From Polyangiales bacterium (GTDB lineage: Bacteria; Myxococcota_A; Polyangia; Polyangiales; JADJQN01), in contig CAXNJO010000003.1 in the NCBI GenBank assembly GCA_964202905.1, positions 256,001-320,000 on the forward strand: a stretch of DNA of 64,000 bases. The letters are read 5' to 3'. The position numbers were made by a program, and so were the translations under genes. Positions 24,654-55,697 of this stretch are shown one piece after another (the stretch's first letter is position 1; every line of letters starts with the position of its first letter). The notes below the pieces were generated by a model, which did no database searches, was not told the DNA's origin, and saw only the letters and a program-made list of their open reading frames with translations.

Positions 24654-24821
24654 CTGGGCGGACGGTCCTTGTGATTCGCGGGCCAGGCGCCCGTGGGTTG
24701 GGCGGGCCAGAAGCCCGTGGGTTGGGCGGGCCAGAAGCCCGTGGGATGGGCGGGCCAGAAGCCCGTGGGACTTCCGGGCGCAGGGCCCGTGTGACTGGCG
24801 GGCGACGAGCCCGTGTGGAGG
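24654..24821. repeat. Tandem array of seven 24-bp units, each with a (G)CGGGC-N5-GCCCG(T) inverted repeat
   Basis: Unit starts 24654, 24678, 24702, 24726, 24750, 24774, 24798; stems conserved (first unit degenerate), loops and spacers vary. Confidence 0.9.
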
Positions 24822-38300: not shown

Positions 38301-39063
38301 CACGCTCGTCCCCGGCGTCGCAGGCGAGCGGCTCGGCGCAGCGCTCGCACGTGCGGGCGACCTCGACGGCGACGGCTGCGACGATCTCCTCGCGGGCGCC
38401 CCGGAGGCCGCACCGACGGGCGCGCCGCGCGTCGCCGGCGCCGTGCGCGTGTTCTTCGGTGCAGGGACCGCCTGCGCCTCGACCGCGGTCCGCAGCGTCA
38501 CGCTCGTCGGCACGAGCGCCGACGCGCAGGCCGGCAGCGCGCTCTCCGACGCGCTCGACGTGACGGGCGACGGCGTCCCGGATTTCGTCGTCGGCGCGCC
38601 GCGCTTTCGCGACGCACGCGGCGGTGTCGGCAGCGCGGTGCTCGTGAGCGGTGCCTACGTGCGCGCTGCGATCGGCGCCGCCGATCCGCGGCCCCTCGTC
38701 GAGCCCGGCGCCGCGCAGCGCGTCTGGACGGGCACGGGCGCCGGCGAGCGGCTCGGCACCTCGGTCGCGCTCGTCGCCGGCCCGGATGGCGCGCCGGTCG
38801 CGCTCCTCGGTGGCCCGTTCGGCAGCACGGCCGGCCGCGTCGACACGGGCTCGGTCGTCGTCGTAACCATCGCACGTGATGGCTTCGGCTCGAACATCGC
38901 GATGCAGATCGCCGGCGAATCCAACGGAATCGGCCAGCTCGGCGAGACGCTCGCTGCCGTCCGCGCCGGCACGCGCACCTTCGTCGCCGTCGGCGCGCCC
39001 TTCTCGAGCCTCGTCGCACGCGAGGACGGCGCCTCGTACGCCTTCACGCTGCCCGCGCCCTGA
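35385..39063 (+). CDS. Large FG-GAP (integrin-alpha-like) repeat lipoprotein with N-terminal Ig-like domains; frameshift near 37600
   Basis: Lipobox LLGC; about ten DxDGDGxxDL repeats with FG/GAP motifs across ORFs 35385-38879 and 37396-39063. Confidence 0.85.
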
Positions 39064-39076
39064 GCGCACACGCGCG

Positions 39077-39177
39077 CATCGCGCCCGGTTCGACGGGAGC
39101 GCGCCCCCCGCGCGCCTCGATTCGACCGCGACACGCCGACGACGGCGTCGCCGCGATCCCCCGCGCCGACTAGGGCC
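39077..39177 (+). repeat. Left copy of 101-bp direct repeat bounding the island
   Basis: Matches 55597-55697 with one mismatch (39113 c vs 55633 t); offset 16520. Confidence 0.95.
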
Positions 39178-40516
39178 TCGTGCACTTGCGGTGTTGTGAT
39201 TGCGGGCAAGAGCTTGTCGTCGCGTTCTCGTGCAAGAAGCGCGGCTTTTGTCCGTCGTGCGTCGCGCGGCGCATGTCAGACGCGGCCGCGCACCTCGTCG
39301 ACGACATGCTCTTCGAGGTGCCGGCGCGACAGTGGGTGTGCTCGCTCCCGTGGCGACTGCGCATCTTGCTCGGCAACGACAGGAGGCGTTGCGCAGCGGT
39401 GATGTCGGCGTTCACGGGCGCAGTGTCGCGCTCTCTCCGACACCGGGCGAAGGCGCGGCTCGGCTTGCCGACTATGGAGGACGCACACGTCGGCGCAGTG
39501 ACCTTCATCCAGCGCTCGGACTCTGCATTGCGCCTCAACGTTCATGCGCACTCGCTGTTTCTCGATGGCGTGTATGTGCGTGACTCCATCGGCGCGCTCG
39601 AGTTTCACGCGCTCGGCGCGATCGGCAGCGACTCGAGCACGTGTTGCGCTACATGGCGCGGTCGCCTCTGGCGCTCGACCGGCTGTCGCTGCGCGAACAT
39701 GGCGCGCAGGAGCGTAGCGACGAGCACCTTGGGACAGGTCGTCGATCGCTTCAAGAAAGCGTGGCGCGACGGGACGCACGCCGTCGTGCTCTCGCCCGCG
39801 GACTTCATCGCGCCATCGCGCGGAGAGCGCGCGCAGAGAGAGCGAAGCGAGCCGAGCACGCCGAGCACGTGTGTGTGCGCTCGTGCCACCTCCTCGCTGT
39901 CACTGGATGCGCTACCTCGGCGTTCTCGCGGGTCACTCGTTGCTCCGTGCGGAGGTCGTGCCGAAGAGACTGGCCGCGCCGCCAAAGCAACTCTCGCTGT
40001 TCGATGAGATGGACGAGCCGACGACGTCAGCGAAGAGCACCACAAAGAAGACAGCCGAGCCGTCGCGACATCCATGGAGTTGGCTCCTGCAGCGGGTGTT
40101 CGCGGTCGATAACTTGAAGTGCGAGAAGTGCGGCGGCCGGCTGCGCATCGTCGAGATCGCGAAGAAGCCCGACGACATTGCGCGCGTGCTCAACGAGCGC
40201 GGCTATCCGAGAGCGCCGCCCGACGCCGAGCCGCGAGCGTCAGCGTATGGACAGCTGCGGCTCGTGCTCGGTTGAGCGGAGCGGCACGGTGAGCGGAGCG
40301 GCACGGTGAGCGGAGCGGCTGCGCACAGCGCGGTCAGGGAGACGTGCGTCCGCCGCACGAACATGCGCTGAAAGTGGGCGCTCGAGGCACGTCGACGAGC
40401 CTCCGGCAGAGCAGCATCGACGCCGAGATTGTGCTCCACGGCACGCCCGTATAGCGTTCCTCGAGGATGGAGCGTCATGGAGCACGACCGAAAGGGCGAC
40501 CGGATGGGCTATACGC
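39178..40516 (+). mobile_element. IS91/ISCR-like HUH transposase relic, copy A (most diverged)
   Basis: CCDC..FSCKKRGFCPSC zinc domain, NVHAH HUH motif, LRYMAR, CEKC; internal deletion at about 39618; ends GGATGGGCTATACGC. Confidence 0.9.
40273..40319 (+). repeat. 17-bp tandem repeat TGAGCGGAGCGGCACGG, about 2.7 copies
   Basis: Units at 40273, 40290, 40307, directly at the transposase stop. Confidence 0.85.
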
Positions 40517-41000
40517 GGCGCTATCGCTCCTGATCGCGGCGTGCGGTTCTTCCCAGGGCTCCGCTGATGGTTCGGTCGCTGACGCTCCGGCCCCTCCCGC
40601 CGCGACGCTTCGCCTCGGCGAGGGCGCGGCGGCGTTCCGCGCCATCGAGGACGGCGACACGCTGCTCGTCGCGATGGGATGTCAGGGAAGTCAGCACGTG
40701 TGGATGTCGCTTCAGAGCGAGGGGCTGGAGCCGCGGCGCATCACCGTCGAACTGTCGCTGTCGCGCGTGAGCGACGGGAGCCTCGTCACGCTCCCTTTCC
40801 GCATCGACCTCTCGTTCACGCCCGATGCATCCGGCGCGTTCGCGCAGATCACGGGTGTGACGCTGCAGGTCCCACTTCCCGACGAAGCGCTCGGGCAGGA
40901 TCTGCTGCTCGTCGGGCGCCTCGCGGATCGAGCGGGTGTGACGGCGACCTCGCAGCGTCGCGTGCGGATCGCGTGGGGGACCGAGATCTGCTCGGTCTGA
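40467..41000 (+). CDS. Lipoprotein; first about 16 codons derive from the IS end
   Basis: Lipobox IAAC; GCQGSQHVW motif. Confidence 0.7.
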   Translation: MERHGARPKGRPDGLYAALSLLIAACGSSQGSADGSVADAPAPPAATLRLGEGAAAFRAIEDGDTLLVAMGCQGSQHVWMSLQSEGLEPRRITVELSLSRVSDGSLVTLPFRIDLSFTPDASGAFAQITGVTLQVPLPDEALGQDLLLVGRLADRAGVTATSQRRVRIAWGTEICSV

Positions 41001-41012
41001 GCGTCGCGCGTC

Positions 41013-42911
41013 TCAGCGGAGCGGAAATGCACCCCGATAGTACGTGTCGACCGCCTCGACGATGCCACGCGTGCTGATCAAGTAGTTGGTCGGGTGCGAC
41101 GCGGCGCGCGGCAACGAGTCGATCTGGAATCGATCCTCGTACACGCGCTCGGAGCCGTTGAACGCGATGACCGCCGGTGGCGCGAGGTACCCGTGGTGGC
41201 CCACGTCGGCGGCGCTGAGCGCCCAGCGAGCGACGTAGCCATCTGCCGCTATGTCGGACTCGGTCAGGAGAAATGGTGTTGCGCCGTCGTCAAGCACACC
41301 AAGCGCCCCGAGGTACGTCGAGTCCTCGATCACAGGCCACATCGCAGCGCAGTCGCGCGCGAAGAAGATCGCGAGGGAACGCCGCCCCGTGACCGGAATG
41401 CTGACGACTCCGCGCGGCGCCACGACCTGTACCTCCGGGAACGGGTCGCCGGCGGCGGGCCGTTCGGTGGGTGGCGTGCTCGACATCGGCCGGAAGGCGA
41501 CGGGCAGGCTCACGCCCGCGCTACCTCCAGCGCTCGCGAACGTCACGTAGATGGACTCGCCGGGCGTGGCCGCGAGCGGCGCGAGCTCGGCAGGGGTCAG
41601 CGTCATCGTCACCGTCTCCATCGCTCCCACTCGCGCGCTGATGGGCGTCGAGCCGAGGTGCGCGGTCACGTCGAACGGCACATCACCTTCGTTGCGAAAC
41701 GGGATCGTCGCGCCCGCGCCCGCGGGCAGGTAGATGCCTCGCGGCATGTCGATCTCGAGTACATGACCCGTTCGGTCCGTGGCGAAGCGCTCGACGAAGA
41801 TCCAGTCGCTCGTGATGAAATCCGAGCCCGCGAAGCGCCCGGAGAGCATCACGCCGCCGTCGCGGTCGTCTCGATGTCCCGAGGCCGAATAGCCGACGAG
41901 TCTCGGCGGCGTCGCGGAGAGATCGTAGAGGTACGCGCCCGTGAGCGTCGTCAGCGCCAGCAGATCGCCGTTCAGGTCAGCTCCAGTCACGACGGCTTGG
42001 GGACTCACGCTCGCGATCACGGACGGCACGCCACTGAGGTCGACGACCACCGCGCCGGCCGAGCCGAGCGCCACCGCGGCGCGGTCTCCGCGAACGGATA
42101 GGTCCTGGGGCGTGCCGGCGAGCGCCAACTCGTGCGCGACGGTCACTGCCGCCCCCGCGCCGTCGAGCACGAGGAGTCCACGGTCGGCAGACAACGCCAC
42201 GAGGTGCTCGGCGTCCGCGGACACGAACCGCACGTTCCCCGTCACGGCGGTGGCCACCGCGGCACGCAGTCCGCCTCTGGGGTCGATCGCAGAAACCCGC
42301 AGCCCGGCATCGAACTGCGCGAGGTAGAGGTCGTCCCGCACCACCGCCAAGTCGCGCACGCCTGCCGTGGTCAGCGGGAGTGATGCGGCGGCGCGCCACA
42401 CGGGGTGCTCCGGGTCCCCGACGTCGTACGCGGTCACGCGGTCGGACTCGTCGGAGCTGCAGTACATCGTCGACGATGCGCCATGGATGGCGAGGGTCGT
42501 GCAGCGAGGTCGCGGGGTCTCGTCCGGGCGGACGAGCGTCGCGAAGATGGACCCGTCCGGCTCGAGCGCGAGCGTCGTGAAAGAGTCCCAGCTGTTGGCG
42601 ACGTACGCGACGCTCCCGTGGATCGTTACCTCGCCGAGGTGCCCACTCGGAATCGGGATCTCGTATTGCTTGCGCAGCGGGAGACCGGAGAGCACAGGCT
42701 CGATCATTGATCCATCCGAAGCCGTGCCGCCATCTCCCGCGTCCGTGGAGCCGTCCGCCGGCGAGCCGTCCCCCGTGTTCGCGTCGTCGTCTGCGTCGCT
42801 CGCGCCTGCGTCGCCAGAGGCGACCGCCTCGTTCCCATCACACGCCACGAACAGGACCGCGACCAGCGAGAGAACGCTCCAGGAGAGACGACATTCTTGG
42901 ACCGCGAGCAT
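41013..42911 (-). CDS. Lipoprotein with LVIVD-like beta-propeller and C-terminal thioredoxin-like domain
   Basis: Lipobox FVAC; repeats AYVAN, YDVGDPEHP, VVVDLS; C-terminal AGDPFP..FFARDCAAM..HPTNYLISTRGIV. Confidence 0.7.
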   Translation of the reverse strand: MLAVQECRLSWSVLSLVAVLFVACDGNEAVASGDAGASDADDDANTGDGSPADGSTDAGDGGTASDGSMIEPVLSGLPLRKQYEIPIPSGHLGEVTIHGSVAYVANSWDSFTTLALEPDGSIFATLVRPDETPRPRCTTLAIHGASSTMYCSSDESDRVTAYDVGDPEHPVWRAAASLPLTTAGVRDLAVVRDDLYLAQFDAGLRVSAIDPRGGLRAAVATAVTGNVRFVSADAEHLVALSADRGLLVLDGAGAAVTVAHELALAGTPQDLSVRGDRAAVALGSAGAVVVDLSGVPSVIASVSPQAVVTGADLNGDLLALTTLTGAYLYDLSATPPRLVGYSASGHRDDRDGGVMLSGRFAGSDFITSDWIFVERFATDRTGHVLEIDMPRGIYLPAGAGATIPFRNEGDVPFDVTAHLGSTPISARVGAMETVTMTLTPAELAPLAATPGESIYVTFASAGGSAGVSLPVAFRPMSSTPPTERPAAGDPFPEVQVVAPRGVVSIPVTGRRSLAIFFARDCAAMWPVIEDSTYLGALGVLDDGATPFLLTESDIAADGYVARWALSAADVGHHGYLAPPAVIAFNGSERVYEDRFQIDSLPRAASHPTNYLISTRGIVEAVDTYYRGAFPLR

Positions 42912-42990
42912 GGCTGCATACGCTACCACGCAGCCGCTCTCGAGCGGGTGTACTGTCGCCCCGTCTCGAACCCGACTCCCACCGCCGCCG

Positions 42991-44114
42991 CCGGGCAAAG
43001 GCACGTCTCGGCCTGCCGAGCGTCGACGATGCGCATGTTGGCGCAGTGACGTTCATTCAGCGCAGCGACTCCGCATTACGCCTCAACGTGCATGCGCACT
43101 CGCTGTTTCTCGATGGCGTCTATGTGCGTGATTCCATCGGCGCGCTCGAGTTTCACGCGCTCGGCGTGCCCACGTTCGAAGAGGTAGAGCAGGTCGCCGA
43201 GTGGACGCACGCGCGCATCGTGAAGGTCCTGCTGGCGCACGGCCGTACGCTCGACGGACTCGGCGATGAGCCGGCGGAGCTCACGCACGATCAGCCGGTC
43301 CTCGCCTCGTGTTTCGCGGCGTCCGCGGCGGACATACAGCTGCTCGGCGACAACGCCGGTCAAATGACGCTCAAGCTCGTGCAGCCTGTGCGCGCCGTGC
43401 GTTCAGAGGCGCGCGCGCTCGCGGACTTCGGCGGCGTGAACGTGCACGCGGAGGTGGCGATAGACGGCCGCGATCGGCAGCGACTCGAGCACGTCCTTCG
43501 CTACATGGCGCGCCCTCCGCTGGCGCTCGACCGGCTCTCGCTTCGCGAACATGGCGCGCAGGAGCGTAGCGACGAGCACCTTGGGGCAGGTCTTGTACCG
43601 GTTCAAGAAGGCGTGGCGCGACGGGACGCACGCCGTGGTGCTCTCGCCCGAGGACCTCATCGCCAGGTTGTGCGCGCTGGTACCCCCACCGAGGTTCCAT
43701 TTGATTCGCTACCTCGGTGTGCTGGCGGGGCACTCGTCGCTCCGTGCCGACGTGGTCCGGCTGCGGATCGTCGAGATCGCCAAGAAGCCCGATGATGTGT
43801 CACGCGTGCTCGCCGAGCGCGGCTGGTCCCGAGCGCCGCCTCGTGGACCGCCTCGCGCCGAGGTGCCGCTGCTCGCGCACGGGCAGCTGCGCCTCGCCTT
43901 CCAGTGAGCTCGACGATTCGAGCGGTTGCGCAGAGCGCGGCCAAGGAGACGTGCGGCCGCCGGGCGAAAATCACCTGAAAGTGAGGGTTCCCGTGTCGCC
44001 GAAGACCACACGGCAGAGGCCCATCAGCGCCGAGATTGTGCTTCGGAGCACCCTCGCGGAGGGTTCACCGGTGCATGGAGCGGGGACGAATCACCGATCG
44101 GATGTCCTACGCGC
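42991..44114 (+). mobile_element. IS91/ISCR-like relic, copy B
   Basis: Starts at RAKARLG, HUH motif present, internal deletion at about 43757, ends GGATGTCCTACGCGC. Confidence 0.92.
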
Positions 44115-44335
44115 CCTGCTCGGCTTCCAGTTCTGAGTCCGTCGGGGGGCCGCTCGGCTGCGTGCCGCCGCGTCCGACGCAAGGCGAGGCGGGAGAGCGG
44201 GAGTTGCGGTCCTCACCGCGCATTGGGTGCGTCGCCCGTCACCACGCATACCGGGATAGAAAGCGCGTGGTGCCCGTACGCGGACGACAATCCACCACGC
44301 GCTGCGATTCACGACACGAACGTCAGCGAAACCGG

Positions 44336-44797
44336 TCAGTATCGCAGACTCACTCGCATGGTCACCGTTTCATTCGCGGTGACGGTGAATTTCGACTCAT
44401 CCCAGGTCGGCGCGGACAGTGCGTACGTGTGATTGTTCGACACGCCATATCCCTCGCTCGGAACGCCGAAGAGGTTCTTGTCGAGGCGCCGATTCGCATT
44501 CTCGTCATGCACGACCGCGATGGCGTAGGTGCCGGGCGGAACGCCCTCCCACGCGCAATCGGCCACCGTGCCGCGGATGGTGGCCCGTACCGTCCGCACG
44601 CCGTTGCCGTCCGGGAAGGTCTCTGGCTTCGAGAACAGCCTGCATTGCAGCGCTCCGCGGGTGTTGCGAAAAGTCGCGACACGGACCCGAACGCTTCCGC
44701 CGTTCTCCTGCGCGGCGACCTGGGGCCACGAGGCGACCAACGGCAGGATCGCCGCGAGGGTGCCGACGAACATGGACAAGGGTTTCCGGTTGATCAT
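44336..44797 (-). CDS. DUF2141-family secreted protein
   Basis: Signal peptide; PGTYAIAVVHDENANRRLDKNLFGVPSEGYGVSNN. Confidence 0.92.
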   Translation of the reverse strand: MINRKPLSMFVGTLAAILPLVASWPQVAAQENGGSVRVRVATFRNTRGALQCRLFSKPETFPDGNGVRTVRATIRGTVADCAWEGVPPGTYAIAVVHDENANRRLDKNLFGVPSEGYGVSNNHTYALSAPTWDESKFTVTANETVTMRVSLRY

Positions 44798-44829
44798 GGT
44801 GGTGTCTCCTGATGTTCCAAACATTCGGT

Positions 44830-45636
44830 TCATGGTGTAGGTGGTGGCAGCGCCGGCAGCGTCGCGTCCCCGCGCACGAGCCATGCGGAGAGGCGCGCGG
44901 TGAGCGCGCGCGGCGAGAAGCGCGCTCCTTGCGCCATGACCCAGTTCCTCCAACCGACGACGTAGGTCGGTGCGGTGCCGTCGAGTGCGGCGAGCGCTGC
45001 CGATACGACCTCTGCGACCGAAGCGGGGCGCTGGAAGATGCGACTCGACCGGAGCTCGGTGCCCGCTGCGTCGATGAACGGTGTTTCGACCGGACCGGGG
45101 CACAGCGCGAGCACACGCAGGCCGCGCCCGCGATATTCGGCCCAGAGCGCTTCGGACAACGAGAGCACGAACGCCTTCGTCGCCCCATACGCGCTCATGA
45201 ACGGCGCGGGCTGAAAGGCGATGGTGGAAGCGACGTTGAGGACGGTGCCGCCGCGCACGAGGAGAGCGGGGGCGAACAAGCGCGTCAGCTCAGTGAGCGC
45301 CACGACGTTCACGTAGAGCTGTTCCGACAGATGGGACGTCGGCTCGTCGTGGAAGGCGCCGAAATAGCCGAGGCCGGCGTTGTTCACGAGCACGTCGATC
45401 GCGAGTCCCTGGCGCGTCACCTCGTCGAAGACCGTCCGCGCCGCCCCCGGCTTCGAGAGGTCCGACGCGAGCACCGTCGCCTTTCCCCCTGCCGCGCGCA
45501 CGCGCGCGGCGAGCGCGTCGAGCCGCTCTTGCGTGCGCGCCACGAGTACGACGTGGTCGCCCCGCGCGCCCAACGCGAGCGCGAGCGCCTCTCCGATTCC
45601 CGACGATGCACCGGTGATCAAAACGATCTTCCCCAT
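44830..45636 (-). CDS. Short-chain dehydrogenase/reductase
   Basis: TGASSGIG, LVNNAG, NVAS, YGATK, LCPGPVET. Confidence 0.95.
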   Translation of the reverse strand: MGKIVLITGASSGIGEALALALGARGDHVVLVARTQERLDALAARVRAAGGKATVLASDLSKPGAARTVFDEVTRQGLAIDVLVNNAGLGYFGAFHDEPTSHLSEQLYVNVVALTELTRLFAPALLVRGGTVLNVASTIAFQPAPFMSAYGATKAFVLSLSEALWAEYRGRGLRVLALCPGPVETPFIDAAGTELRSSRIFQRPASVAEVVSAALAALDGTAPTYVVGWRNWVMAQGARFSPRALTARLSAWLVRGDATLPALPPPTP

Positions 45637-45727
45637 ACTGACGACTCCTAGGCACTTCGAGACCGCCGCGGGGACACCCAGCGGCGCGCGTGGTGCGCGA
45701 TGACGCGAGCGGCCCGCGCGTTGCGAC

Positions 45728-45763
45728 TTGACAGTGTCTACCAGCCGAAGATGACGGTGTCAA
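45728..45763. promoter_or_regulatory. Paired TetR-type operators overlapping divergent -35 boxes
   Basis: TTGACAGTGTCTA (45728-45740) and ATGACGGTGTCAA (45751-45763) between the divergent SDR and TetR genes. Confidence 0.7.
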
Positions 45764-45785
45764 GTCCGTGTGGTAGAAGCAGCCG

Positions 45786-46358
45786 ATGGCCGCGGAAACG
45801 CTGAAGCAACAGGTGCTCGACGCGAGCATCGCGCTCGTCGCCGAGAGTGGACTGGCGGGGCTCTCCATGCGCGAGGTCGCGCGTCGCGCCGGCGTCAGCC
45901 ACCAGGCGCCCTATCATCACTTCGCCGACAAGGCGGCGATCGTGGCAGCGCTCGTCGAGCGCGGGTTCGCGATGCTCACGCTCCGACTCGAGGCGGCCCG
46001 TGACGCGGGCCCGGCCGAGCGTGCGCTCGAGCGAGCGGGGCGCGCCTACGTCCACTTCGCGCTCGCCGAGCCTGTCTACTTCCGGCTGATGTTCCGACCC
46101 GAGCTCTCGGGTACGCACCCCGTTCCCCCAACGGAATCAGCCGGTGCGAAGGCATTTTCGGTCTTGCAGTCCCTCGTCGACGTGCGTCTCGGGCCCCGCG
46201 CGCGTCCATCGCGCCGTGAAGCGCTCACGTCCTTGAACTGGGCGGTCGTGCACGGCCTCGCGACGCTGTTGCTCGACGGGCCCCTCGCGCACGTCGAGGA
46301 CCGGGAGCAGCACGTCGATCAGGTGCTGCGCCTCTTTTCCGAGGCGACCTCGGACTGA
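45786..46358 (+). CDS. TetR/AcrR-family regulator
   Basis: LSMREVARRAGVSHQAPYHHFADK helix-turn-helix; WAVVHGLATL. Confidence 0.95.
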   Translation: MAAETLKQQVLDASIALVAESGLAGLSMREVARRAGVSHQAPYHHFADKAAIVAALVERGFAMLTLRLEAARDAGPAERALERAGRAYVHFALAEPVYFRLMFRPELSGTHPVPPTESAGAKAFSVLQSLVDVRLGPRARPSRREALTSLNWAVVHGLATLLLDGPLAHVEDREQHVDQVLRLFSEATSD

Positions 46359-46390
46359 TCGCCCTGCCCGACCTCGGAGTTCGCCGACTC

Positions 46391-47902
46391 CGGCTTTTGT
46401 CCGTCGTGCGTCGCGCGCCGCATGTCAGACGCGGCCGCGCACCCCGTCGACGACGTGCTCCCCGAGGTGCCGACGCGACAGTGGGTGTGCTCGCTGCCTT
46501 GGCGACTGCGCATCTTGCTCGGCTACGACAGGAGGCTTTGCGCAGAGGTGATGTCGGCGTTCACGGGCGCAGTGTCGCGCTCGCTCCGACACAGGGCGAA
46601 GGCGCAGCTCGGCCTGCCGAGTGTCGACGATGCGCATGTTGGCGCAGTGACGTTCATTCAGCGCAGCGACTCCGCATTACGCCTCAACGTCCATGCGCAC
46701 TCGTTGTTTCTCGATGGCGTCTACGTGCGTGATTCCATCGGCGCGCTCGCGTTTCACGCGCTCGGCGTGCCCACGTTCGAAGAGGTAGAGCAGGTCGCGC
46801 AGTGGACGCACACGCACATCATAAAAATCCTGCTGGCGCACGGCCGCAAGCTCGACGGACCCGGCGATGAGCCGGCGGAGCTCACGCACGATCAGCCGGT
46901 CCTCGCCTCGTGTTTCGCGGCGTCCGCGAGCGGACGTACAGCTGCTCGGCGACAACGCCGGTCAACAGACGCTCAAGCTCGTGCAGCCTGTGCGCGCCGT
47001 GCGTTCAGAGGCGCGCGCGCTCGCGGAGTTCGGCGGCGTGAACGTGCACGCGGAGGTCGCGATAGATGGTCGCGATCGGCAGCGACTCGAGCACGTTCTG
47101 CGCTACATGGCGCGCCCTCCGCTGGCGCTCGACCGGCTCTCGCTTCGCGAACATGGCGCGCAGGAGCGTAGCGACGAGCACCTTGGGGCAGGTCTTGTAC
47201 CGGTTCAAGAAGGCGTGGCGCGACGGGACGCACGCCGTCGTGCTCTCGCCCGAGGACTTCATCGCCAGGTTGTGCGCGCTGGTACCCCCACCGAGGTTCC
47301 ATTGGATGCGCTACCTCGGTGTGCTGGCGGGGCACTCGTCGCTCCGTGCCGACGTGGTCCCGAAGAAGGCTGCCGCACCGCCTGAGTCGCCGAAGCAGCT
47401 CCCGCTGTTCGACGAGTCGGCCGAGCCGACGACGTCCGCGAAGGCAGCCGCGACGAAGACGGCCGAGCCGTCGCGGCATCCGTGGTCCTGGGTGCTGCAG
47501 CGGGTCTTCGCCGTCGACGTCTTGAAGCGCGAGAAGTGCGGCGGCCGGCTGCGGATCGTGGAGATCGCGAAGAAGCCCGATGATGTGTCACGCGTGCTCG
47601 CCGAGCGCGGCTGGTCCCGAGCGCCGCCTCGTGGACCGCCTCGCGCCGAGGTGCCGCTGCTCGCGCACGGGCAGCTGCGCCTCGCCTTCCAGTGAGCTCG
47701 ACGATTCGAGCGGTTGCGCAGAGCGCGGCCAAGGAGACGTGCGGCCGCCGGGCGAAAATCACCTGAAAGTGAGGGTTCCCGTGTCGCCGAAGACCACACG
47801 GCAGAGGCCCATCAGCGCCGAGATTGGGCTTCGGAGCACTCTCGCGGAGGGTTCACCGGTGCATGGAGCGGGGACGAATCACCGATCGGATGTCCTACGC
47901 GC
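46391..47902 (+). mobile_element. IS91/ISCR-like relic, copy C (longest)
   Basis: Starts at GFCPSC, HUH motif, LRYMARPP, frameshifts at about 46928 and 47157-47187; ends GGATGTCCTACGCGC. Confidence 0.93.
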
Positions 47903-48333
47903 GCGCGCTACGAGCGTGTGACGTGCCCTTCGTCGCCCTCGAAATGAACGTCGACAACGTCCGCAAGGGGCGCGCCGAGGGGCATCCCGCGTATTACGGG
48001 GACGCGACGAGCGAGGAGGCGCTGCGCCACGCACACGTCGAGCACGCGCGGCGGGTCGTGCTGCTGATGAACGACCCGCAGGCGGCGCTGCGCGTGGTGG
48101 ATACGCTGCGACGGGTCGCGCCGAACGTGCCGGTGCTGATGCGGACACGCTATCTCGCCGATCGCGCGACGCTGCTGGCGCTCGGCGCGAGGGATGTGGT
48201 CGTCGAGGAGGTCGAGGGAGCCGCCGAGGTCGTGTCGACGCTGCTGCGGAGCGTGGACGTGCCGGAGCCGACGATCGACGAGCGCTTGCGCGCGCTGCGG
48301 AGCGCGACGGGGGCGAGCGCGTTTGCAACCTGA
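47903..48333 (+). pseudogene. C-terminal KTN/TrkA-N fragment of a Kef-type cation/H+ antiporter
   Basis: ARAL...PFVALEMN, YYGDATSEEAL..A.VEHAR, LGARDVVVEE; begins at the IS tip. Confidence 0.8.
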
Positions 48334-48416
48334 CGCGACGCCGGCCACTGCGGCGCTTGTCTGGATGCGCGGGCTTCGGCATCCTTCACGCCATGCGCTC
48401 GGATCGCGGAACGCTC

Positions 48417-49601
48417 ATGCATCGGTCGCCGTGCATCCCCCGCGGGGTTGGGTTCGCCATCGTGCTGCTCGTCGCGGGCTGCGGGCTCACGAAGCGTGAG
48501 GCCGTGACGAAACTCGATGCGGCGCTCGGGGCCATCGCACCGGGCGAGGTGCACGGCGCCGCGATGTGGGTAGACGCGCCGCGACACGGCATCCGGCAGG
48601 GTTTTGCGCATGGCGTCGCGGATGCGGCACGCGGGACGGCGATGACGGTGGACACACCATTTCTCTCGGCGAGCGTCGGCAAGCTCTTCGTGGCGACGGC
48701 CGTGCTCAAGCTCGTGGCGGATGGCCGTCTGTCGCTGACGGATCCGGTCACGCGGCACGTGCCGCGCAGCGAGCTCGCCGGGATCCCGATCGCGGGTGGC
48801 GACGCGGCCTTCGACCGCTTGACGGTGGGGATGCTCCTCGCGCACCGGAGCGGGCTGCCGGACTATTTCTCGGATCCGTCGCGCGATGGGGCGCCGCGGC
48901 TCTTCGATCGGATCGTGCGGGAGCGTGACCGGGTGTGGACGCGCCGCGCAATGCTCGATTACGCGCGGGCGCACTACGCACCGGTCGGTGCGCCGGGGGC
49001 GACATTCCACTATTCCGACACCAACTACGATCTGCTCGGGATGGTGCTCGAGGGCGTCGCGCAGAAACCCTTTCATGCGGCGGTGCGCGAACTGGTGATC
49101 GCGCCCGTCGGATTGCGGGCCACCTGGTATCACGCCTTCGAGCAAGCGCCTGCGGAGGCCGCGCCCGTGGCGGATGTGTGGGTGAAGAATGCGAATCTGC
49201 GCGGGGCGCCTGCGCTCTCCGTCGATCAGGCGGGAGGCGGGCTCGTGACGACGCTCGCGGACCTGCGCACGTTCATGCGGTCGCTCGTCGCGGGGCGGCC
49301 CATCCCGCTCTCGTCTCTCGACACGGATTACACCCTCGATGCGATGCACGACGGCATCGATGTGGGCCGTTGTGCGTGGCGCATTCGCCCGAGCGGCGTG
49401 TTTTTCGCGCTCGCGGGGATGCCCGATCTCGTGGGGCACTCTGGCGCGACGGGCGTCTGGGCCTATTACGCGAAGGATTGGGATGCCGTGTTCGTCGGCG
49501 CAGTGAGCGATTCGCGTTGGCAGGAGAAGCACATCGAGTTCCTGCTGCGCGAGGTGCTTCCGGTGCTGGCGCGGACACCGATGCAGGACACGGTGCGCTG
49601 A
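48417..49601 (+). CDS. Serine hydrolase (beta-lactamase class C/AmpC-like), lipoprotein
   Basis: Lipobox VAGC; ASVGK (SxxK), LLAHRSGLPDY, YSDTNY, GHSG. Confidence 0.9.
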   Translation: MHRSPCIPRGVGFAIVLLVAGCGLTKREAVTKLDAALGAIAPGEVHGAAMWVDAPRHGIRQGFAHGVADAARGTAMTVDTPFLSASVGKLFVATAVLKLVADGRLSLTDPVTRHVPRSELAGIPIAGGDAAFDRLTVGMLLAHRSGLPDYFSDPSRDGAPRLFDRIVRERDRVWTRRAMLDYARAHYAPVGAPGATFHYSDTNYDLLGMVLEGVAQKPFHAAVRELVIAPVGLRATWYHAFEQAPAEAAPVADVWVKNANLRGAPALSVDQAGGGLVTTLADLRTFMRSLVAGRPIPLSSLDTDYTLDAMHDGIDVGRCAWRIRPSGVFFALAGMPDLVGHSGATGVWAYYAKDWDAVFVGAVSDSRWQEKHIEFLLREVLPVLARTPMQDTVR

Positions 49602-49668
49602 GCGGCGACGCCGCCATGGACATGTCGTCGGGCGACTCACGCCCTGCGTCATGCAGACGAGGAGACCC

Positions 49669-50068
49669 GTGGCCGAGAGACGCCAGATTCCCCCGAGTGC
49701 GCGTCTGATGATTCTGTTTCGGGAGACGGGAGTCCCGGCGCTGTGGATCGCCCTGTGGCTGCCCTTTCTGGTGCACTCGTTTGCCGACAGCGCCTACGTG
49801 CTCTGGTTTCGCGACACCGTCGATCTCCCTGCGCGTATCGTGTCGGCGGGCTTCACCTCCGAGAGTCGCGGTCGGACCGTGCCGCGGTGGGAGGGATATC
49901 GCGTCGAGGCGGAGTTCACGTATCAAGGGCGGTCTTGGCGCACCACCGGGGATCTCACCGGTCTCCCGAGCGACGGCAGGGTGCGCGTACGTGTTCCGCG
50001 CACACGACCTGATCTCGCGGTCGCCTTCGACGGAGGGGGGCCGTGGTATCGACAGACGCCTGTGTGGC
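49669..50068 (+). pseudogene. DUF3592-like membrane protein truncated by IS copy D
   Basis: TM helix, beta-rich middle, VRVRVPRTRPD; runs into transposase sequence at WLL. Confidence 0.5.
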
Positions 50069-50485
50069 TCCTGGCTGCTGCAGCGGGTCTTCGCCGTCGA
50101 CGTCTTGAAGTGCGAGAAGTGCGGCGGCCGGCTGCGGGTCGTCGAGATCGCCAAGAAGCCCGACGACGTGTCGCGCGTGCTCGCCGAGCGCGGCTGGTCC
50201 CGAGCGCCGCCTCGTGGACCGCCTCGCGCCGAGGTGCCGCTGCTCGCGCACGGGCAGCTGCGCCTCGCCTTCGAGTGAACTCGACGATTCGAGCGGTTGC
50301 GCAGAGCGCGGCCAAGGAGACGTGCGGCCGCCGGGCGAAAATCAACTGAAAGTGAGGGTTCCCGTGTCGCCGAAGACCACACGGCAGAGGCCCATCAGCG
50401 CCGAGATTGTGCTTCGGAGCACCCTCGCGGAAGGTTCACCGGTGCATGGAGCGGGGACGAATCACCGATCGGATGTCCTACGCGC
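50064..50485 (+). mobile_element. IS91/ISCR-like relic, copy D (3' end only)
   Basis: WLLQRVFAVDVLKCEKCGG..QLRLAF plus the same about 200-bp end finishing GGATGTCCTACGCGC. Confidence 0.92.
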
Positions 50486-50777
50486 CGAGCACGTAGCCAG
50501 TGATCACCACCAGCGCCATCTGCAGCGTAAACGGCAGCAGCACCCAGAAGCCCTTGCCCCACAGCTCCACCACCTCGACCGGAGGCGTCGGTGTCGCGAA
50601 CATCGCCGCGAGAACGACGACGATGGTGCCTATGAGCGCGAACACGAACGCATCCGGCACGAAGCGCTCCGCCGCGTCCGTCAGCCGCGCAGCGACGCGC
50701 TCGAACAACGGCGCGCGCGTTCCAACGAGCTTAGCGGTAGACGGAGACGGCGTACGCGGAGGAGCGTCGGCGGACAC
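50478..50777 (-). pseudogene. atoE: N-terminal fragment of short-chain fatty acid transporter (AtoE-like)
   Basis: ERFVPDAFVFAL, WGKGFWVLLPFTLQMALVVITGYVL; cut by the IS tip. Confidence 0.85.
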
Positions 50778-50819: not shown

Positions 50820-51266
50820 CTACGAACCGGCGAGGGGGTCCTCCACCCACCACGAGCCGGCGTCGAAGACCGGATTCAGCAAGTGCTCGCGACCGTCGGC
50901 AAACATGACTCTGATGAACGGCGACTCGTCCCACCCCCACGAACGCTTGAGCGTTGCGATGACGGCGGCCGCCTCCCAGCGCTCGCGTTTGGATTTCGCG
51001 CGGCAGGAGATTGTCGCGGCGCCCCGGGTTTCAGAGCGCACCGCGGACACGACGTCGTGCGGGAAGAGCGACTCCAGCGCGGCGTCGTCGCTCTCGAGTA
51101 CGAACGGCTCGCTCGCCGGAGCGATCACCACGTGCGACCGCGACTCTCCGCGATACGACACGACGGCGCGCACTGCTTGGACCGCTCCGGACAGGCCGGT
51201 GGTCTCAGCCGGCCAGTGGCCCAAGTCCTGAGTCGTGATCTCGATTGTGTAGGCTCGCGAAGTCAT
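50820..51266 (-). CDS. Hypothetical protein
   Basis: 148-aa ORF from ATG 51266 with globular-looking composition; no motif recognised. Confidence 0.55.
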   Translation of the reverse strand: MTSRAYTIEITTQDLGHWPAETTGLSGAVQAVRAVVSYRGESRSHVVIAPASEPFVLESDDAALESLFPHDVVSAVRSETRGAATISCRAKSKRERWEAAAVIATLKRSWGWDESPFIRVMFADGREHLLNPVFDAGSWWVEDPLAGS

Positions 51267-51298
51267 CGGAACGGCGGTCGGTCTCACGTGCGAGATTC

Positions 51299-51640
51299 TC
51301 ACACACCGCGTCGCAATGCCCCGCGCGTGGAGCTGGGCGGGGGAGGTATCTTGAAAACGTGGGTACAGCGCGTCGGACCCGTCCCCTCGCGCAGCTGGCC
51401 GACCTCCTGATCGAGTGGCGGCTGCAGCTTGAGCACCACGTCGGCGCCCCACGCGGTGGCGCGATCGACGAGCGCGGCGCCGGCGGCCTCGTACTGGGTG
51501 TCGGGGTAGCTGGCGATCTCGCCGGCCCCGCGCTCGAGCTGGACGTCCCAGCCGGCCTTCACCCACCGCGCCACGACCTGTGGCGACGCTGCGACCCGCC
51601 GCTCCTCGGGACGTATCTCCTTGACGATACCTAGCTTCAT
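51299..51640 (-). pseudogene. pntA: N-terminal fragment of NAD(P) transhydrogenase alpha subunit
   Basis: MKLGIVKE..PEERRVAASP, ERGAGEIASYPD..Y.AAGA, ADVVLKLQPP; similarity stops near 51380 (alanine dehydrogenase shares this domain). Confidence 0.75.
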
Positions 51641-51725
51641 GCGGGGGGCGGAGGTTGCCACCCGCCGCCCCCGCACGGAAGCCTTGACCCTCAACTTGTG
51701 CCCCCCCACGTGCGACACTGGCGGC

Positions 51726-52125
51726 ATGTCCGACTCTGCCGACCCAGGGGCGCTCGCGGCGCTGCAGGCCGAGGTCCTGGAGCTGCGCGAGGCCGTCAGC
51801 GCGCTGCAGGGAGAGCTGCGGCGGGCTCAGCACCGCGTGGACCTCACCATGCGGGGCCAGCTCCGGTGCAGAGCGTGCGGCTGCCGCCAGATCGCCCACG
51901 CCCTGCGCGTGCTCGACCGCGCCGACGGCAACACCCGGGACGCGATGGCCCTGTACCAGCCCAGCTGGTGGAGCACCCGCACCGTCGGCGAGCTCGAGGC
52001 CTACATCTGCACCCGCTGCGGCTCGGTGGAGTGGTGGATCACAGGACCCGGGCTCGCTGGTCGAGCACGCCGAGCACCTCGAGATCCTCGATGGCGATCG
52101 CGTCGGCGAGGGCCCGTACCGGTGA
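51726..52125 (+). CDS. Coiled-coil plus zinc-ribbon hypothetical protein; frameshift near 52050
   Basis: CRACG and CTRCG..EW pairs; C-terminus LVEHAEHLEILD..GPYR* in the shifted frame. Confidence 0.6.
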
Positions 52126-52330
52126 CCGGCGCGGGGACCCGGTACGACGCCGACGCGGCGGGCCGGCTGACCCGGATCACCGACCGCGCTGGCGCGGTCC
52201 ATGCCGAGCTATCCTGGAACGGCGACGCGCTGATCGCGCTGGTGGTGCCGGGCGCGAGCGTCCACGGCGAGGTCCATGACGATCCCCTGCTCGGGGCGTC
52301 CCACGCGATCCAGCACGCGGTCGAGGCGGG
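52122..52330 (+). pseudogene. N-terminal gene fragment with YD-like segment
   Basis: GTGA overlap start; YDADAAGRLTRITD; ends at the IS3-like remnant. Confidence 0.4.
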
Positions 52331-52334
52331 GAAT

Positions 52335-52419
52335 CTGCCCATCTCTCGCTTCGCGCGCATGTCCGCGAAGCAGGCAGCAGCGAGCTAGGCAACCTGTCTA
52401 CTGAACCGGGGCAAGCTCA
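52335..52419 (+). mobile_element. IS3-family right-end remnant
   Basis: QAAAS-stop followed by CCTGTCTACTGAACCGGGGCAAGCTCA, a typical IS3-family right terminal repeat ending in CA. Confidence 0.6.
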
Positions 52420-52559
52420 GTGTCGCGACGAGCACCCCGGAGCCCCTCGAGCGCCCCGGCGTGCTGGTGCGCGCTGCCGACGCGGCCCTGTACCAAGCCA
52501 AGGAACGGGGCCGCAATCGCGTGGTCTTGTCCGTAGCCGTCCGGCGACCCCCGTCGTGA
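52420..52559 (+). pseudogene. C-terminal GGDEF domain fragment
   Basis: GVAT...LVRAADAALYQAKERGRNRV starts immediately after the IS3 end. Confidence 0.8.
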
Positions 52560-52560
52560 C

Positions 52561-53237
52561 AAGCGCGCGGATCGACGTTCAGTTCGCGGCGGCCCAGGCG
52601 GCGGGGAGCAAGTCGTCGATGGCGTTCGCGGGGTGATCCTGCACGCGGGCGAGGACGTCGGAGAGGTAGTCGAAGGGGTTGATGCCGCGCGATTCGCAGG
52701 TGGCGACGAGCGAGTAGAGGCCGGCGAGGCTTTGGCCGGCGGCGACGTCGCCGACGAAGAGGTAGTTCTTGCGGCCGAGCGCGATCCTACGCAGCGCGCG
52801 CTCGGAGGCGTTGTTGTCGAGCGGGACGCGGGCGTCGTCGAGGAAGACGCCGAGCTCGTCCCACTGGCCGAGCGTGTAGCGGATGGCGGCGCCGATCGGG
52901 CTCTTCGGCGGTTGCTTTGCGTGCTGCGCGTCGAGCCAGTGCTTGAAGCGTTCGCGGATCGGGCCTGCGCGCTGTTTCCGAAACTCCAATTTGGCGGCGT
53001 CAGAAAGTTTGCGTTCCGCGGCCTCGTGTTCGACGCGATAGAGCGCGGTGATCAGGTCGAGCGCCTCCTGCGCGACGGGCGCGGTCTTGATCGACTCGAA
53101 GAAGTAGCGGCGCACGTGCGCATGGCAGGCCGCGCGGCGACGACTCGAGACCTTCTCGATGTCGTTGTAGCCGCTGTAGCCATCGACGAGCAGCACGCCT
53201 TTCGTGTCTTCGAGAAGCGCCTTCGGCGTCGCGCCGC
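52561..53237 (-). mobile_element. IS66-family transposase (TnpC) C-terminal fragment with near-intact end
   Basis: VDGYSGY, CHAHVRRYF, LDNNASERALR.IALGRKNYLF, GINPFDYLSDVL, DDLLP.AW; stop at 52579. Confidence 0.92.
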
Positions 53238-54074
53238 TCAGGGGACCGGCTCGGCGGTGGCCGCGGCGCGCGCGGAGGCCCTCGCCGTGCCGCCCCCCTC
53301 GGAGACTGGCACCGCGATCTCGAAGTCCATGTCGAACCGCATGTCGACGAGCCAACCGTCCGAGAGGCGGACGAAGAAGTCCCCCTCGACGCTCCCCCTC
53401 CCTCCACCGCGCTCCGTCTCCGCGACCGGTCGCTCGTCCACCACCGCGAGCGTGCCGGCCAAGCGGATGTGCGCGTGCAGCTCGTCGCCGCGCGGCTCGA
53501 CCGACACGAGCGTGTAGGCCGCATCGACCGTGTAGCGGTCGGTGCCTCCGTTCGGGTTCCAGCGGAGCGTGCCCTGCCACGCGTCGCCGATCGCGACCGG
53601 CGCCTCGGGATACAGCTCGAACACAGGCTGGGTGTTCGTCGCCGTGCCCTCCGCGGTGGAGGCGGGCCGCCCGCGCTCGTCGAGCAGGCGGATCGAGGGC
53701 GGTGAACACGGTCCGTCGCTCGGCTCGGGGGCCAGCCTCCGCATCAGCTCGCAGCGCGACTGCACCTCGAGGAGACCCGCATTGCTGACGCCGACGATTC
53801 GCTGGACGAAGCTGAACTCCGCCGCGGGGCCCCCTATCCCGTTGATGTTGTAGGCGGTGCGAAGCCGCATTCGCATCGCGGTGCCGAGGCTCGGCTGCAG
53901 GCGCAGCCGGTACGTCGCGGACGGGTCACCCGCGAGCCCGTTCGATGCGCTTCGGGCGGTGGCCTCGCCGCCCGCAGCCCCGGCGGCGCCGCAGCCGAGG
54001 AGGAGCGCCGCAACGGCCGCGAGCCGGGGTTCGACGCGCGGACGAAGGGATGTTTCGCTGCACCGTGTGTTCAT
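53238..54074 (-). CDS. Lipoprotein, DUF6263-like beta-rich fold
   Basis: Lipobox LLGC; YPEAPVAIGDAW, YTLVSVE, G.FFV...GWL. Confidence 0.7.
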   Translation of the reverse strand: MNTRCSETSLRPRVEPRLAAVAALLLGCGAAGAAGGEATARSASNGLAGDPSATYRLRLQPSLGTAMRMRLRTAYNINGIGGPAAEFSFVQRIVGVSNAGLLEVQSRCELMRRLAPEPSDGPCSPPSIRLLDERGRPASTAEGTATNTQPVFELYPEAPVAIGDAWQGTLRWNPNGGTDRYTVDAAYTLVSVEPRGDELHAHIRLAGTLAVVDERPVAETERGGGRGSVEGDFFVRLSDGWLVDMRFDMDFEIAVPVSEGGGTARASARAAATAEPVP

Positions 54075-54152
54075 CGGCGGACCGTACTTGCCGCGAAGCT
54101 GCCTCGTCCAAGACCCTCGGGTGGGATTCCCGATCTCGGATTCGATGGTGAG

Positions 54153-54659
54153 ATGGCGGACCTCGGATACGCGCGACCGCTGCGCGCGCTGACTCCGGTG
54201 ACGTATCGACTGCTGCGGAGGCGCGGCTCGACTCTCGCCGGCCTCGGCGCGGTGTTCCGGGTGACGTGGCGGGACGGGGTCGCGGTGCTGCGGGAGCCCA
54301 TCTCGGGGCCTCCGGAGGCCGCCGAACTCGTGTTCGGAAGCTCGTTTTTTCCCGGCTGCCCGCGGCCGCACGGGCCCGTGCAGGTGAACGATGCGTGGAC
54401 CGAGGCCGACCCGCTCGAGCCCTCGATGGTGCTGCAGGCGCGCCTCGTCTCGATCGACGCCGAAGTCGGCACGGCGAGCGTGGAGTGCACCTCGCAGGGC
54501 GTGCTGCCGCAGGCGGACGGGACAACGATGCACCTCCGCGCACGCGATGAGATCGCGATCGGCACGGGACTCTCGGTGCGCGTCACCTGCGACGTGACGG
54601 TCAGCGCCGAGCGCTTTCGGACGACGACCCGAGCGGTCACCGAGCGCGCCCCGCTCTGA
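54153..54659 (+). CDS. Hypothetical protein, possibly same fold as 53238-54074
   Basis: PHGPVQVNDAW, ARLVSID, TGL; no signal peptide. Confidence 0.55.
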   Translation: MADLGYARPLRALTPVTYRLLRRRGSTLAGLGAVFRVTWRDGVAVLREPISGPPEAAELVFGSSFFPGCPRPHGPVQVNDAWTEADPLEPSMVLQARLVSIDAEVGTASVECTSQGVLPQADGTTMHLRARDEIAIGTGLSVRVTCDVTVSAERFRTTTRAVTERAPL

Positions 54660-54680
54660 GCTGCGCGGAGCCGCCCGCGC

Positions 54681-54743
54681 CGAACATCGCGACGCAGATC
54701 GCCGGCGAATTCAACGGAATCGGCCAGCTCGGCGAGACGCTCG
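54681..54743 (+). repeat. 63-bp copy of the FG-GAP gene 3' region (38891-38953)
   Basis: Direct alignment with two mismatches. Confidence 0.92.
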
Positions 54744-54946
54744 GCGCCGGCCAACCGGCGCAGCGCGGCGCCTCGGCGCGCGCGTCGCTCTTCGTCGGAG
54801 TCCATGCGCAGCTGCGTATCGGACGCGTGGTGCGATGGCCAAGGCGCTCCGACCGACCCTGACCAACCTCCGCCACTCTCAGAAGAATACGTGAACACCT
54901 CGTCGGCGCTCAGCTCAGCGACACCGTTGACACACAGCGCCACCCC

Positions 54947-55450
54947 ATGAGCAGGATCGCGCTCATGAAGTTGTCCCACTCGCACCGTTTCATCGCATTG
55001 GTCTTGCTCGTTACGTTCTCCGCGATCTCGTCGGGCTGCTACAAGAACGTCGCGATTCGCCCAGACCAGATCCCGCAGCTCAGCGGCATGCCGAGCCCCA
55101 CAGTCGTCGGCCAGTCCGGCAACACCACGATCTACGCAATCCCCGTCGCGACCGTCCTCGCGCCCGACGGGACCAACGTGCAGATTCGCGGCGAGTACAA
55201 CCTCGTGCTTCGCATGAACGGCGGCCAGGAGTTCACTTTCGACCATCCGGTGCGCGGCACGATCGACCCCGGCGGAGTGCTCGACGTCAACGGCGCCAAC
55301 CGGCCGGCGACGCGGTTCAACCTTGGCGATATTCGCGAATCGTTCGTCACGCAGTACGACGCCGTCGCGAGCGTCTTCGCCATCATGGGAGCGAGCCTCT
55401 TGGCCTTCGCGGTCTCCCTGGGCATCACATTTGCCGCCATCGGGCGCTGA
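54947..55450 (+). CDS. Lipoprotein-like protein with C-terminal TM helix
   Basis: Signal peptide ending SSGC; hydrophobic C-terminus; alternative start 54965. Confidence 0.75.
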   Translation: MSRIALMKLSHSHRFIALVLLVTFSAISSGCYKNVAIRPDQIPQLSGMPSPTVVGQSGNTTIYAIPVATVLAPDGTNVQIRGEYNLVLRMNGGQEFTFDHPVRGTIDPGGVLDVNGANRPATRFNLGDIRESFVTQYDAVASVFAIMGASLLAFAVSLGITFAAIGR

Positions 55451-55596
55451 CGGGCCTCCCGCATCCGACGCCGCAGCATGTCGAGATTCCCCGGCAACCA
55501 AACCTGCGTTGCGGCGCGCGACAGCCCACCGAAACTGTCCGACTCACACGAATGGCGGATATCCACGGGGCGATTCGAGTCTTTGCGCACACGGCA

Positions 55597-55697
55597 CATC
55601 GCGCCCGGTTCGACGGGAGCGCGCCCCCCGCGTGCCTCGATTCGACCGCGACACGCCGACGACGGCGTCGCCGCGATCCCCCGCGCCGACTAGGGCC
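55597..55697 (+). repeat. Right copy of 101-bp direct repeat
   Basis: Matches 39077-39177; includes the TAG stop of the 55690 gene. Confidence 0.95.

Follow-up and report, generated by a model that had tools for sequence, protein, structure and literature searches.

The stretch of DNA analysed here (G000:C3:256001-320000; 64,000 nt, hereafter the window) belongs to a metagenome-derived genome, G000, of 5.68 Mb (19 contigs, no N, 73% GC); below, C2, C3, C5, C6, C13, C15, C17 and C18 are contigs of this genome, and G001-G162 are comparison genomes. At the locus of interest lie four relics of an ISCR-like transposase gene, A to D, all on the plus strand, all dead, and all retaining the 3' end of the gene together with a tail of 207-241 nt. 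Each finishes at a ‘tip’, directly behind which comes what looks like a cut gene, with further ‘cargo’ genes filling the spacers between the relics (Table 1). The array forms the left two thirds of a 16.5-kb variable island that has a direct repeat (114 bp, 97%) at both edges. The nearest named homologue of the transposase, at 86% identity, is in a Sandaracinaceae genome, and the metagenome runs that best cover this DNA are from lake or freshwater; the host is probably a myxobacterium, and its environment probably freshwater.

Table 1. Features of the array, of the island around it and of comparable tail duplications (window coordinates unless a locus or contig is given).
Position	Strand	Feature	Basis
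39064..39177	.	114-bp imperfect direct repeat, left copy (intergenic DNA behind the FG-GAP gene, with the final bases of the gene ending at 55690)	111/114 positions equal 55585-55697
39174..39177	+	GGCC overlap, resident chromosome to interior of relic A	both parents in genome: 55694-55697 and C5 transposase copy
39178..40516	+	relic A: 5'-truncated, internal deletion and two short insertions, 241-nt tail, tip GGATGGGCTATACGC	PF14319; comparison with intact transposase
40517..41000	+	lipoprotein gene cut in signal peptide; in frame with tail ATG 40467	homologues
41013..42911	-	cargo 1: secreted protein of some 630 residues, apparently intact	no Pfam or NCBIfam match
42991..44114	+	relic B: frameshifting insertion, internal deletion at 43757, 207-nt tail, tip GGATGTCCTACGCGC	PF04986; comparison with intact transposase
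44115..44136	+	putative last codons of cut gene (...LLGFQF*)	sequence alone
44336..44800	-	cargo 2: DUF2141 protein	domain match
44830..45636	-	cargo 2: short-chain dehydrogenase	domain match
45786..46358	+	cargo 2: TetR-family regulator	domain match
46391..47902	+	relic C: two frameshifts, 207-nt tail, tip GGATGTCCTACGCGC	comparison with intact transposase
47903..48333	+	cut C-terminal KTN (TrkA-N) part of Kef-type potassium transporter gene; in frame with tail ATG	domain and homologues
48357..49601	+	cargo 3: serine hydrolase, beta-lactamase fold	PF00144; well under all NCBIfam cut-offs for beta-lactamases
49657..50070	+	cargo 3: gene for a membrane protein, truncated on the 3' side by relic D	70% paralogue on C2
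50069..50485	+	relic D: last ~70 codons, 207-nt tail, tip GGATGTCCTACGCGC	BLAST match from 50064 via near-matching overlap
50486..50777	-	N-terminal piece of atoE short-chain fatty acid transporter gene, cut at tip D	domain and homologues
50820..55584	.	island right third, patchwork without ISCR ends	AlaDH/PNT N-terminal piece 51299-51640; insertion sequence (IS) end 52347-52420; IS66 3' part 52533-53232; several unassigned open reading frames
54681..54752	+	second, 93% copy of piece of resident FG-GAP gene (38891-38962)	sequence match
55585..55697	.	114-bp direct repeat, right copy; resident genes again beyond	repeat comparison
L101:8141-8239; L031; L069; L155; G137:C2:76767-76872		tail-duplication sites	tail comparison

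The initial annotation of this DNA had described four same-strand relics with different internal starts and a common 3' end and tail, and this description holds, with D now placed from about 50069. Aligned with an intact transposase, A starts near residue 76, B near 165, C near 98 and D near 452, at unrelated internal points that share no motif and with overlaps of just 2-4 nt at the joints; that of D is a 2-nt exact overlap inside a 6-of-7 match, and an apparent 7-nt overlap at the left joint of B was discounted, its basis being a loose end, in low-complexity sequence, of a single X2 contig. Identity among B, C and D is 95-99%, and that of A to C is 90% in the 5' part and about 72% over the 3' part; the relic-to-relic matches have E values far below 1e-40, so that their likeness is not a matter of chance. 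Given the frameshifting insertion common to A, B and C, the internal deletions in A and B, and the reduction of D to 70 codons, no working enzyme can come from any of them. Against copies on C17, relics B, C and D are 93-95% identical in the 5' half but only 65-72% across the tail, and a shared insertion accompanies both tail types; this mosaic of two subfamilies tells us that the copies have exchanged segments. Short insertions of an AGCG(T/A)AGCGA type lie within the relics (about 39697-39730, 43550-43583 and 47152-47185, and about 39812-39870), the first being common to four copies in G000 and present also in G001.

A full-length version of the element exists in the same genome, as an intact 520-residue frame on both C6 and C15, with a terminus one mismatch away from that of B to D; the C15 copy (G000:C15:74000-83572, L008) sits about 7 kb from a comEC gene. 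The intact transposase is 38% identical to that of ISVsa3 (ISCR2) over 503 residues, with the zinc-binding region, the HxH motif and the single RY motif all aligned (HAH and LRY of the intact copy with HFH and CRY of ISVsa3). Its PF04986 score is over the cut-off, and its best NCBIfam match is to ISCR clade Ia (NF052416; E 1.8e-91) at 307 bits, below the cut-off of 925, with the strict IS91 family (NF033538) at 84.5 bits, likewise below its cut-off of 125. A single catalytic tyrosine is the defining trait of ISCR elements, the two-tyrosine motif YxxxY being that of the strict IS91 family; the stretch HVLRYMAR of the intact transposase holds one tyrosine, and the HVLRY that had been read as ISCR-like therefore stands.

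The remaining traits of the element are of the same kind. Its tails are of the oriIS type, as had been proposed, and end in a conserved 15-nt terminus that aligns with the ends of ISVsa3 and ISCR1. Terminal inverted repeats were absent from the 25 longest inverted repeats of the window, and the flanks to the left and right of the copies are unrelated, with no target duplication. The upstream terIS region is gone from all four relics, and full-length copies share a left boundary slightly upstream of the gene. A 6-bp oriIS hairpin can be drawn in B, although the z-scores of five tails (-0.35 to 0.88) are not above those of shuffled sequences. A promoter-like spacing (TTGTGC-17-TAG[CG]GT) recurs in nine tails of the genome (window 40425-40453 and equivalents) and is altered in B, C and D; outward promoters are described for ISCR elements (PMC6218425), and one in the present tails was rejected when tail A failed a consensus scan. 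The element is an ISCR-like member of the IS91-like group as generally defined (PMC13393415, PMC3575428), with indirect signs (below) of a putative rolling-circle mobility. Homologues are present in 159 of 251 genomes of the order, a tally that includes G000 and the unpublished G122, a genome on which no finding given here depends. A tyrosine integrase, supposed to be lacking, was indeed not found on C3, the three PF00589 matches of the genome being on C6, C8 and C11.

The right end of each copy is the fixed 15-nt terminus, joined sharply to arbitrary DNA. Across eight genomes it takes the form G(G/A)ATGTCCTAYRCGC, which can be aligned with the ISVsa3 end, as read from a plasmid, and with the ISCR1 end quoted in PMC13023784. 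At 63 distinct junctions the first base beyond the tip is C in 41, T in 14, A in 4 and G in 4, such that C or T follows in 55 of the 63 against 51% pyrimidines further out, and still in 34 of 39 junctions once the two largest sets are removed; the boundaries of the 15-mer were chosen by us and junctions in related genomes are not independent, so that the significance of these counts is overstated. IS91-family elements have targets of CTTG or GTTC beside oriIS (PMC13181058); the 63 junctions show nothing akin to such a tetranucleotide, just the preference at the first base.

The GCGC after three of the tips had been put forward as a target tetranucleotide; it is instead the element's own end. 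At the atoE joint the window has L-G-A, whereas all 11 homologues have V-[LV]-A-[TQ], and the last four bases of the tip are absent from the donor both at a C2 tip seated in the known interior of a transposase and in four tail duplications (G137, G162, G025 and G001). Tip C is the exception, as the Kef gene may itself read GCGC there (Ala at the first codon in 8 of 9 homologues, with one X6 contig matching from exactly 47899), and GCGC at this tip may be an overlap, arisen by chance or favoured. The tail duplications are themselves informative: in five cases (those four, and ISVsa3 on an E. coli plasmid) 34-106 nt of tail are repeated head-to-tail directly behind the tip, with the tip joined to a point upstream of itself and the duplication starting at C or T each time.

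Copies elsewhere show which flank travels with the element. The clearest case is G137, a 9.5-Mb genome in five contigs (97% complete), where 16 exact tips lie on one strand of one contig, 14 in its first 151 kb and two near its other end, and where most copies are full-length and 98-100% identical. Downstream of the tips, none of 120 pairs share 20 nt or more; upstream, 28 of 66 left-end pairs do, over nested lengths of 470-1943 nt. The same asymmetry is seen in G004 and in the intact C6/C15 pair of G000, and no two copies share a downstream flank in any genome examined, save the C17/C18 pair; these two contigs have identical ends of more than 5 kb, with a relic (C17:1-5770 and C18:1-5650), which could reflect a recent duplication but looks like an assembly duplicate. 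The G137 loci (G137:C2:14564-151966 and 3175000-3217000; L064-L067, L137-L146) make up a young array of at least 17 co-oriented copies with nested shared upstream DNA, and this array is a better model than the window.

Several other arrangements of related elements were observed. In G000, six same-strand relics of another ISCR-like family, with tip GGATCGGTTACCCTC, lie beside ISAzo13 copies and a serine recombinase gene (G000:C13:102750-124271; L003, L004). Starts at the same base are seen for two relics on C13, beside the ISAzo13 copies, and for two in G004. Three copies of a non-autonomous derivative of about 1.15 kb with an ISCR-like tip are found on C2 (G000:C2:666850-682974; L005, L006), one tip being joined into the interior of another transposase relic.

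Returning to the window, the spacers A-B, B-C and C-D are 2474, 2276 and 2166 nt long and have a GC content of 68-69%, against about 75% in the resident flank. They have no close copy elsewhere in the genome except for one 70% and one 74% paralogue, and pieces of them occur at 93-99% identity in contigs of another study (X6). The claim that a cut gene follows every tip was borne out for the KTN, atoE and lipoprotein genes, the last with just the first few codons of its signal peptide missing (eight homologues shown); for the ALLGFQF* tail behind B no source was traced, a single chance match being unrelated and in another frame. The KTN/TrkA-N piece lacks 433-500 codons of the preceding open frame, judged by all nine homologues examined, and the atoE piece lacks about 400 codons by 10 of 11 homologues, the eleventh showing 237. 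ATG codons within the tails (window 40467 and 47863) are in frame with the cut lipoprotein behind A and the KTN domain behind C and, judging by reading frame, could supply a new start to the cut genes; this is the case at two of the three same-strand joints, which is not beyond chance. In G092 (C246, L156) a full ISCR-like transposase is followed, at a distance of 2 kb, by a KTN homologue of the Kef type, a proximity that is probably coincidence. Simple insertion of an element into one gene was considered and rejected, since left and right flanks do not rejoin in the window. The spacers hold two to four genes on both strands, with cut ends, in place of the attC-bounded whole-gene cassettes of an integron, though no search aimed at attC sites was made; because the units are fragments of an arbitrary kind, and ISCR ends are missing from about a third of the island, the description ‘integron-like’, as first applied to the array, was an overstatement.

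As to the island itself, no third copy of the 114-bp repeat exists elsewhere in the genome, and no tRNA gene was found in the window. In its right third, 43 nt at window 52315-52357, beside an IS end, are identical to C2:683576-683618, in the gene upstream of the C2 derivative, which points to exchange between islands of one genome. Among 60 genomes none held a close match to the FG-GAP flank (66% at best), and neither an empty site nor an alternative allele was secured; scans of metagenomes with cargo and tail patterns likewise found nothing. Well outside the island, five tandem repeats of 24 nt lie at window 24667-24810.

Four copies on one strand would arise by chance alone one time in eight. 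Beyond the window, however, co-orientation is seen in five of five pieces on C17, in all six copies (98-100% identical) of the second family on C13, and in the 16 exact tips of G137. Replication-strand bias was considered as the cause and rejected for the window: by polarity of an octamer motif known from E. coli, eight of ten loci go with the trend, two of them weakly, while the window faces against it, and GC skew was too weak to assign the strand. Co-orientation here thus needs a local cause, or import of the array as a block.

Synthesising these findings, we propose that the window holds the decayed array of an ISCR-like rolling-circle element, in which circles made by the transposase and carrying upstream cargo plus element would have entered at resident copies, with the 5' parts of the copies eroded; we hold this with about even confidence. 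The transposase, acting in trans for dead copies, would nick at the tip and copy leftward through the element and the DNA upstream of it, with a stop site that is loosely defined and in many cases lies within a gene. Joining of the tip to this stop point would give a circle of the form ‘cut gene - cargo - element - tip’, which might then enter at a resident copy, either through RecA over 400-1500 bp of shared sequence or through the transposase at the tip, so as to place a new unit directly behind the old tip and in the same orientation. Illegitimate deletions would remove the 5' parts, either before capture, when loss of terIS would promote read-through, or afterwards; a unit would accordingly consist of cargo and the relic on its right. 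The fixed tip, the sharing of upstream DNA and the tail duplications together fit rolling-circle initiation at the tip with leftward read-through, and the mosaic relics tell us that recombination acts on them. There is precedent in the published model for ISCR1, which involves a circle and recombination (PMC7707992, PMC13023784), in capture between two oriIS (PMC12772301), and in IS91-type circles and arrays outside the setting of resistance (PMC5737581).

Saying this, a number of observations weigh against such a model. Among 10 genomes picked for having several matches on one contig, clusters are co-oriented in six and run in both orientations in four (G001, G046, G103 and G151). The shared upstream stretches of G137 stop short of the previous tip (470-1943 nt, against gaps of 4-24 kb), so that these units either underwent remodelling or came in some form other than a simple circle, and the first 55-430 nt of the shared DNA may be part of the element itself. 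The flanks do not clearly rejoin at five G137 copies, on the evidence of their open frames, or among the open reading frames around 13 copies. Some 5 kb of the island, about a third, has seams that lack ISCR ends, and its left edge likely reflects one-sided homologous recombination, which it resembles, as opposed to rolling-circle action. Most IS801 fragments are attributed to rearrangement in PMC3189936, and in PMC6218425 ISCR transposition is described as being without experimental proof as of 2018. Finally, neither a second copy nor an empty site of any window cargo block was found in G000 or the relatives searched; capture by these four copies remains inferred, as do the order of events and any present activity.

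Of the competing explanations, the one to be taken most seriously, tentative as we judge it to be, is the ‘landing pad’ preferred in the initial annotation. Here, the element would first have inserted in a gene of a donor cell; incoming DNA with a portion of it, the tip and the flank beyond would be trimmed, circularised or illegitimately joined, and would enter a resident relic through a single crossover, so that one full and one variably truncated copy frame the cargo, with no transposase needed at capture. Such one-sided integration (homology-facilitated illegitimate recombination, or single crossover of a trimmed circle) partly duplicates the anchor and leaves a short overlap at the joint; in E. 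coli, 56 of 60 clones carried a partial anchor duplication (109-950 bp in the 14 sequenced), in a geometry like that seen here (PMC3240628). It fits the 97% outer repeat, the GGCC joint with both parents in the genome, the 93% FG-GAP copy and the left joint of D; moreover, the genome encodes comEC and two recA matches over the whole profile, the relics are mosaic, and the units of the window cannot be ordered in time, which keeps this rival alive. By itself, however, it gives no sharp tip junctions, it leaves unexplained tail duplications as short as 34-42 nt, and overlaps of 2-4 nt are short for DNA of 70% GC; nor is a downstream flank shared in the genomes examined, the C17/C18 pair apart, although this point is weak if donors were always other cells. 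We therefore retain the recombination between relics that the annotation had called for, as seen in the mosaic copies and the duplication at the edge, and favour rolling-circle capture of upstream DNA followed by integration at a resident copy over its polarity of ‘element plus downstream flank’, the upstream flank being the shared one. Trans-acting rolling-circle capture, which it had named as the alternative, thus gains support from the shared upstream flanks and the head-to-tail tip joints, albeit as an inferred event for the four copies of the window.

It is also conceivable, if in our view unlikely, that the relics mark the seams of independent abortive insertions, in which the tip was transferred precisely and the other end resolved illegitimately with loss of neighbouring DNA, and that they carried no cargo at all. 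One-ended right-end fragments of IS801 do transpose in vivo (PMC3189936), the right third of the island is a patchwork made without ISCR ends, the X6 contigs hold cargo pieces at 93-99% identity, and neither in the window nor at the G137 copies tested do the flanks clearly reunite as a single gene; yet tight clustering and co-orientation, as of the 16 G137 tips within about 190 kb, would then need a separate cause, strand bias failing for the window, and the nested upstream flanks indicate that upstream DNA does travel. Repeat-induced misassembly, by which real cargo blocks would have been put in a false order by joining across similar repeats, has in its favour that the genome derives from a metagenome, that no single record among the contig matches listed spans the whole stretch, and that C17 and C18 share an end; we regard it as very improbable. 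The copies differ by 1-5% or more and have private deletions, the same architecture recurs in near-complete genomes, and tips A, C and D are each bridged into cargo by short-read contigs, which come from two studies (X1 record 3, X4 record 21 and X2 record 14; the source sample may be X1). Among the matches listed, no contig bridged any left junction, or tip B by 31 letters. A dip in contig depth at 53.4-55.6 kb (X1, X2), which may mean strain variation, was left out of account, as no contig joins across it. A broader and rather doubtful extension of our preferred reading, rolling-circle capture with entry at resident copies, is that accretion without an integrase is common in myxobacterial chromosomes: the transposase would add units at existing oriIS tips, origin to origin and with the C/T preference, dead tails would serve as attachment sites, and the duplications of 34-106 nt would be the smallest units.

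The element type and the stacking of genes are already known from antibiotic-resistance regions. The closest parallel is ISCR2/ISVsa3 on resistance plasmids (NZ_MZ054178.1; tet(X4) contexts in PMC11228144), whose transposase has the same HxH and single-tyrosine RY motifs and whose tail of about 235 nt ends in ...TTCCTATACGT, with same-strand copies alternating with passenger genes and a 98-nt head-to-tail tail duplication; the window differs in being a chromosomal island of an environmental myxobacterium, with non-resistance cargo and four dead, 5'-truncated copies. In the model of Toleman and colleagues for ISCR1 in complex class 1 integrons, as given in PMC7707992 and PMC13023784, terIS loss, upstream read-through, a circle and entry by recombination are all invoked, and the terminus ...TTCCTATACCC can be aligned with ...GTCCTATACGC; the window, however, lacks both an integron and a 3'-conserved segment, its element would itself serve as the anchor for homology, and the cargo differs from unit to unit. 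The ISCR28 ‘sandwich’ of a remnant oriIS and a full copy, as relayed in PMC12772301, likewise holds cargo between two direct oriIS ends, whereas the window iterates the sandwich three times with every copy truncated. IS91, IS801 and IS1294, with the miniature right ends of IS801 (PMC13181058, PMC3189936), share the HUH transposase, the downstream oriIS, variable right-end fragments and the lack of a target duplication, but here there is no fixed tetranucleotide at the tip or left ends, the flanks are not a split target, and the tyrosine is single. A literature search, largely without subscription journals and with no supplements, and thus weak, gave among the records listed no report of multi-copy truncated ISCR arrays in myxobacterial chromosomes, or of a C/T preference after oriIS.

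The array in the window is old and eroded, its cargo is ordinary, and it contributes little by itself; of more value are the rules seen at the junctions and the intact relatives to which it leads. ISCR elements are linked to many resistance genes, and natural, non-clinical arrays such as these yield many independent junctions, which fix the end of the element (GCGC included), the C/T preference at the joint, and the fact that it is upstream and not downstream DNA that travels. The intact and apparently recent copies, namely the C6/C15 pair and the identical copies of G137, now make the mobility of ISCR elements testable.

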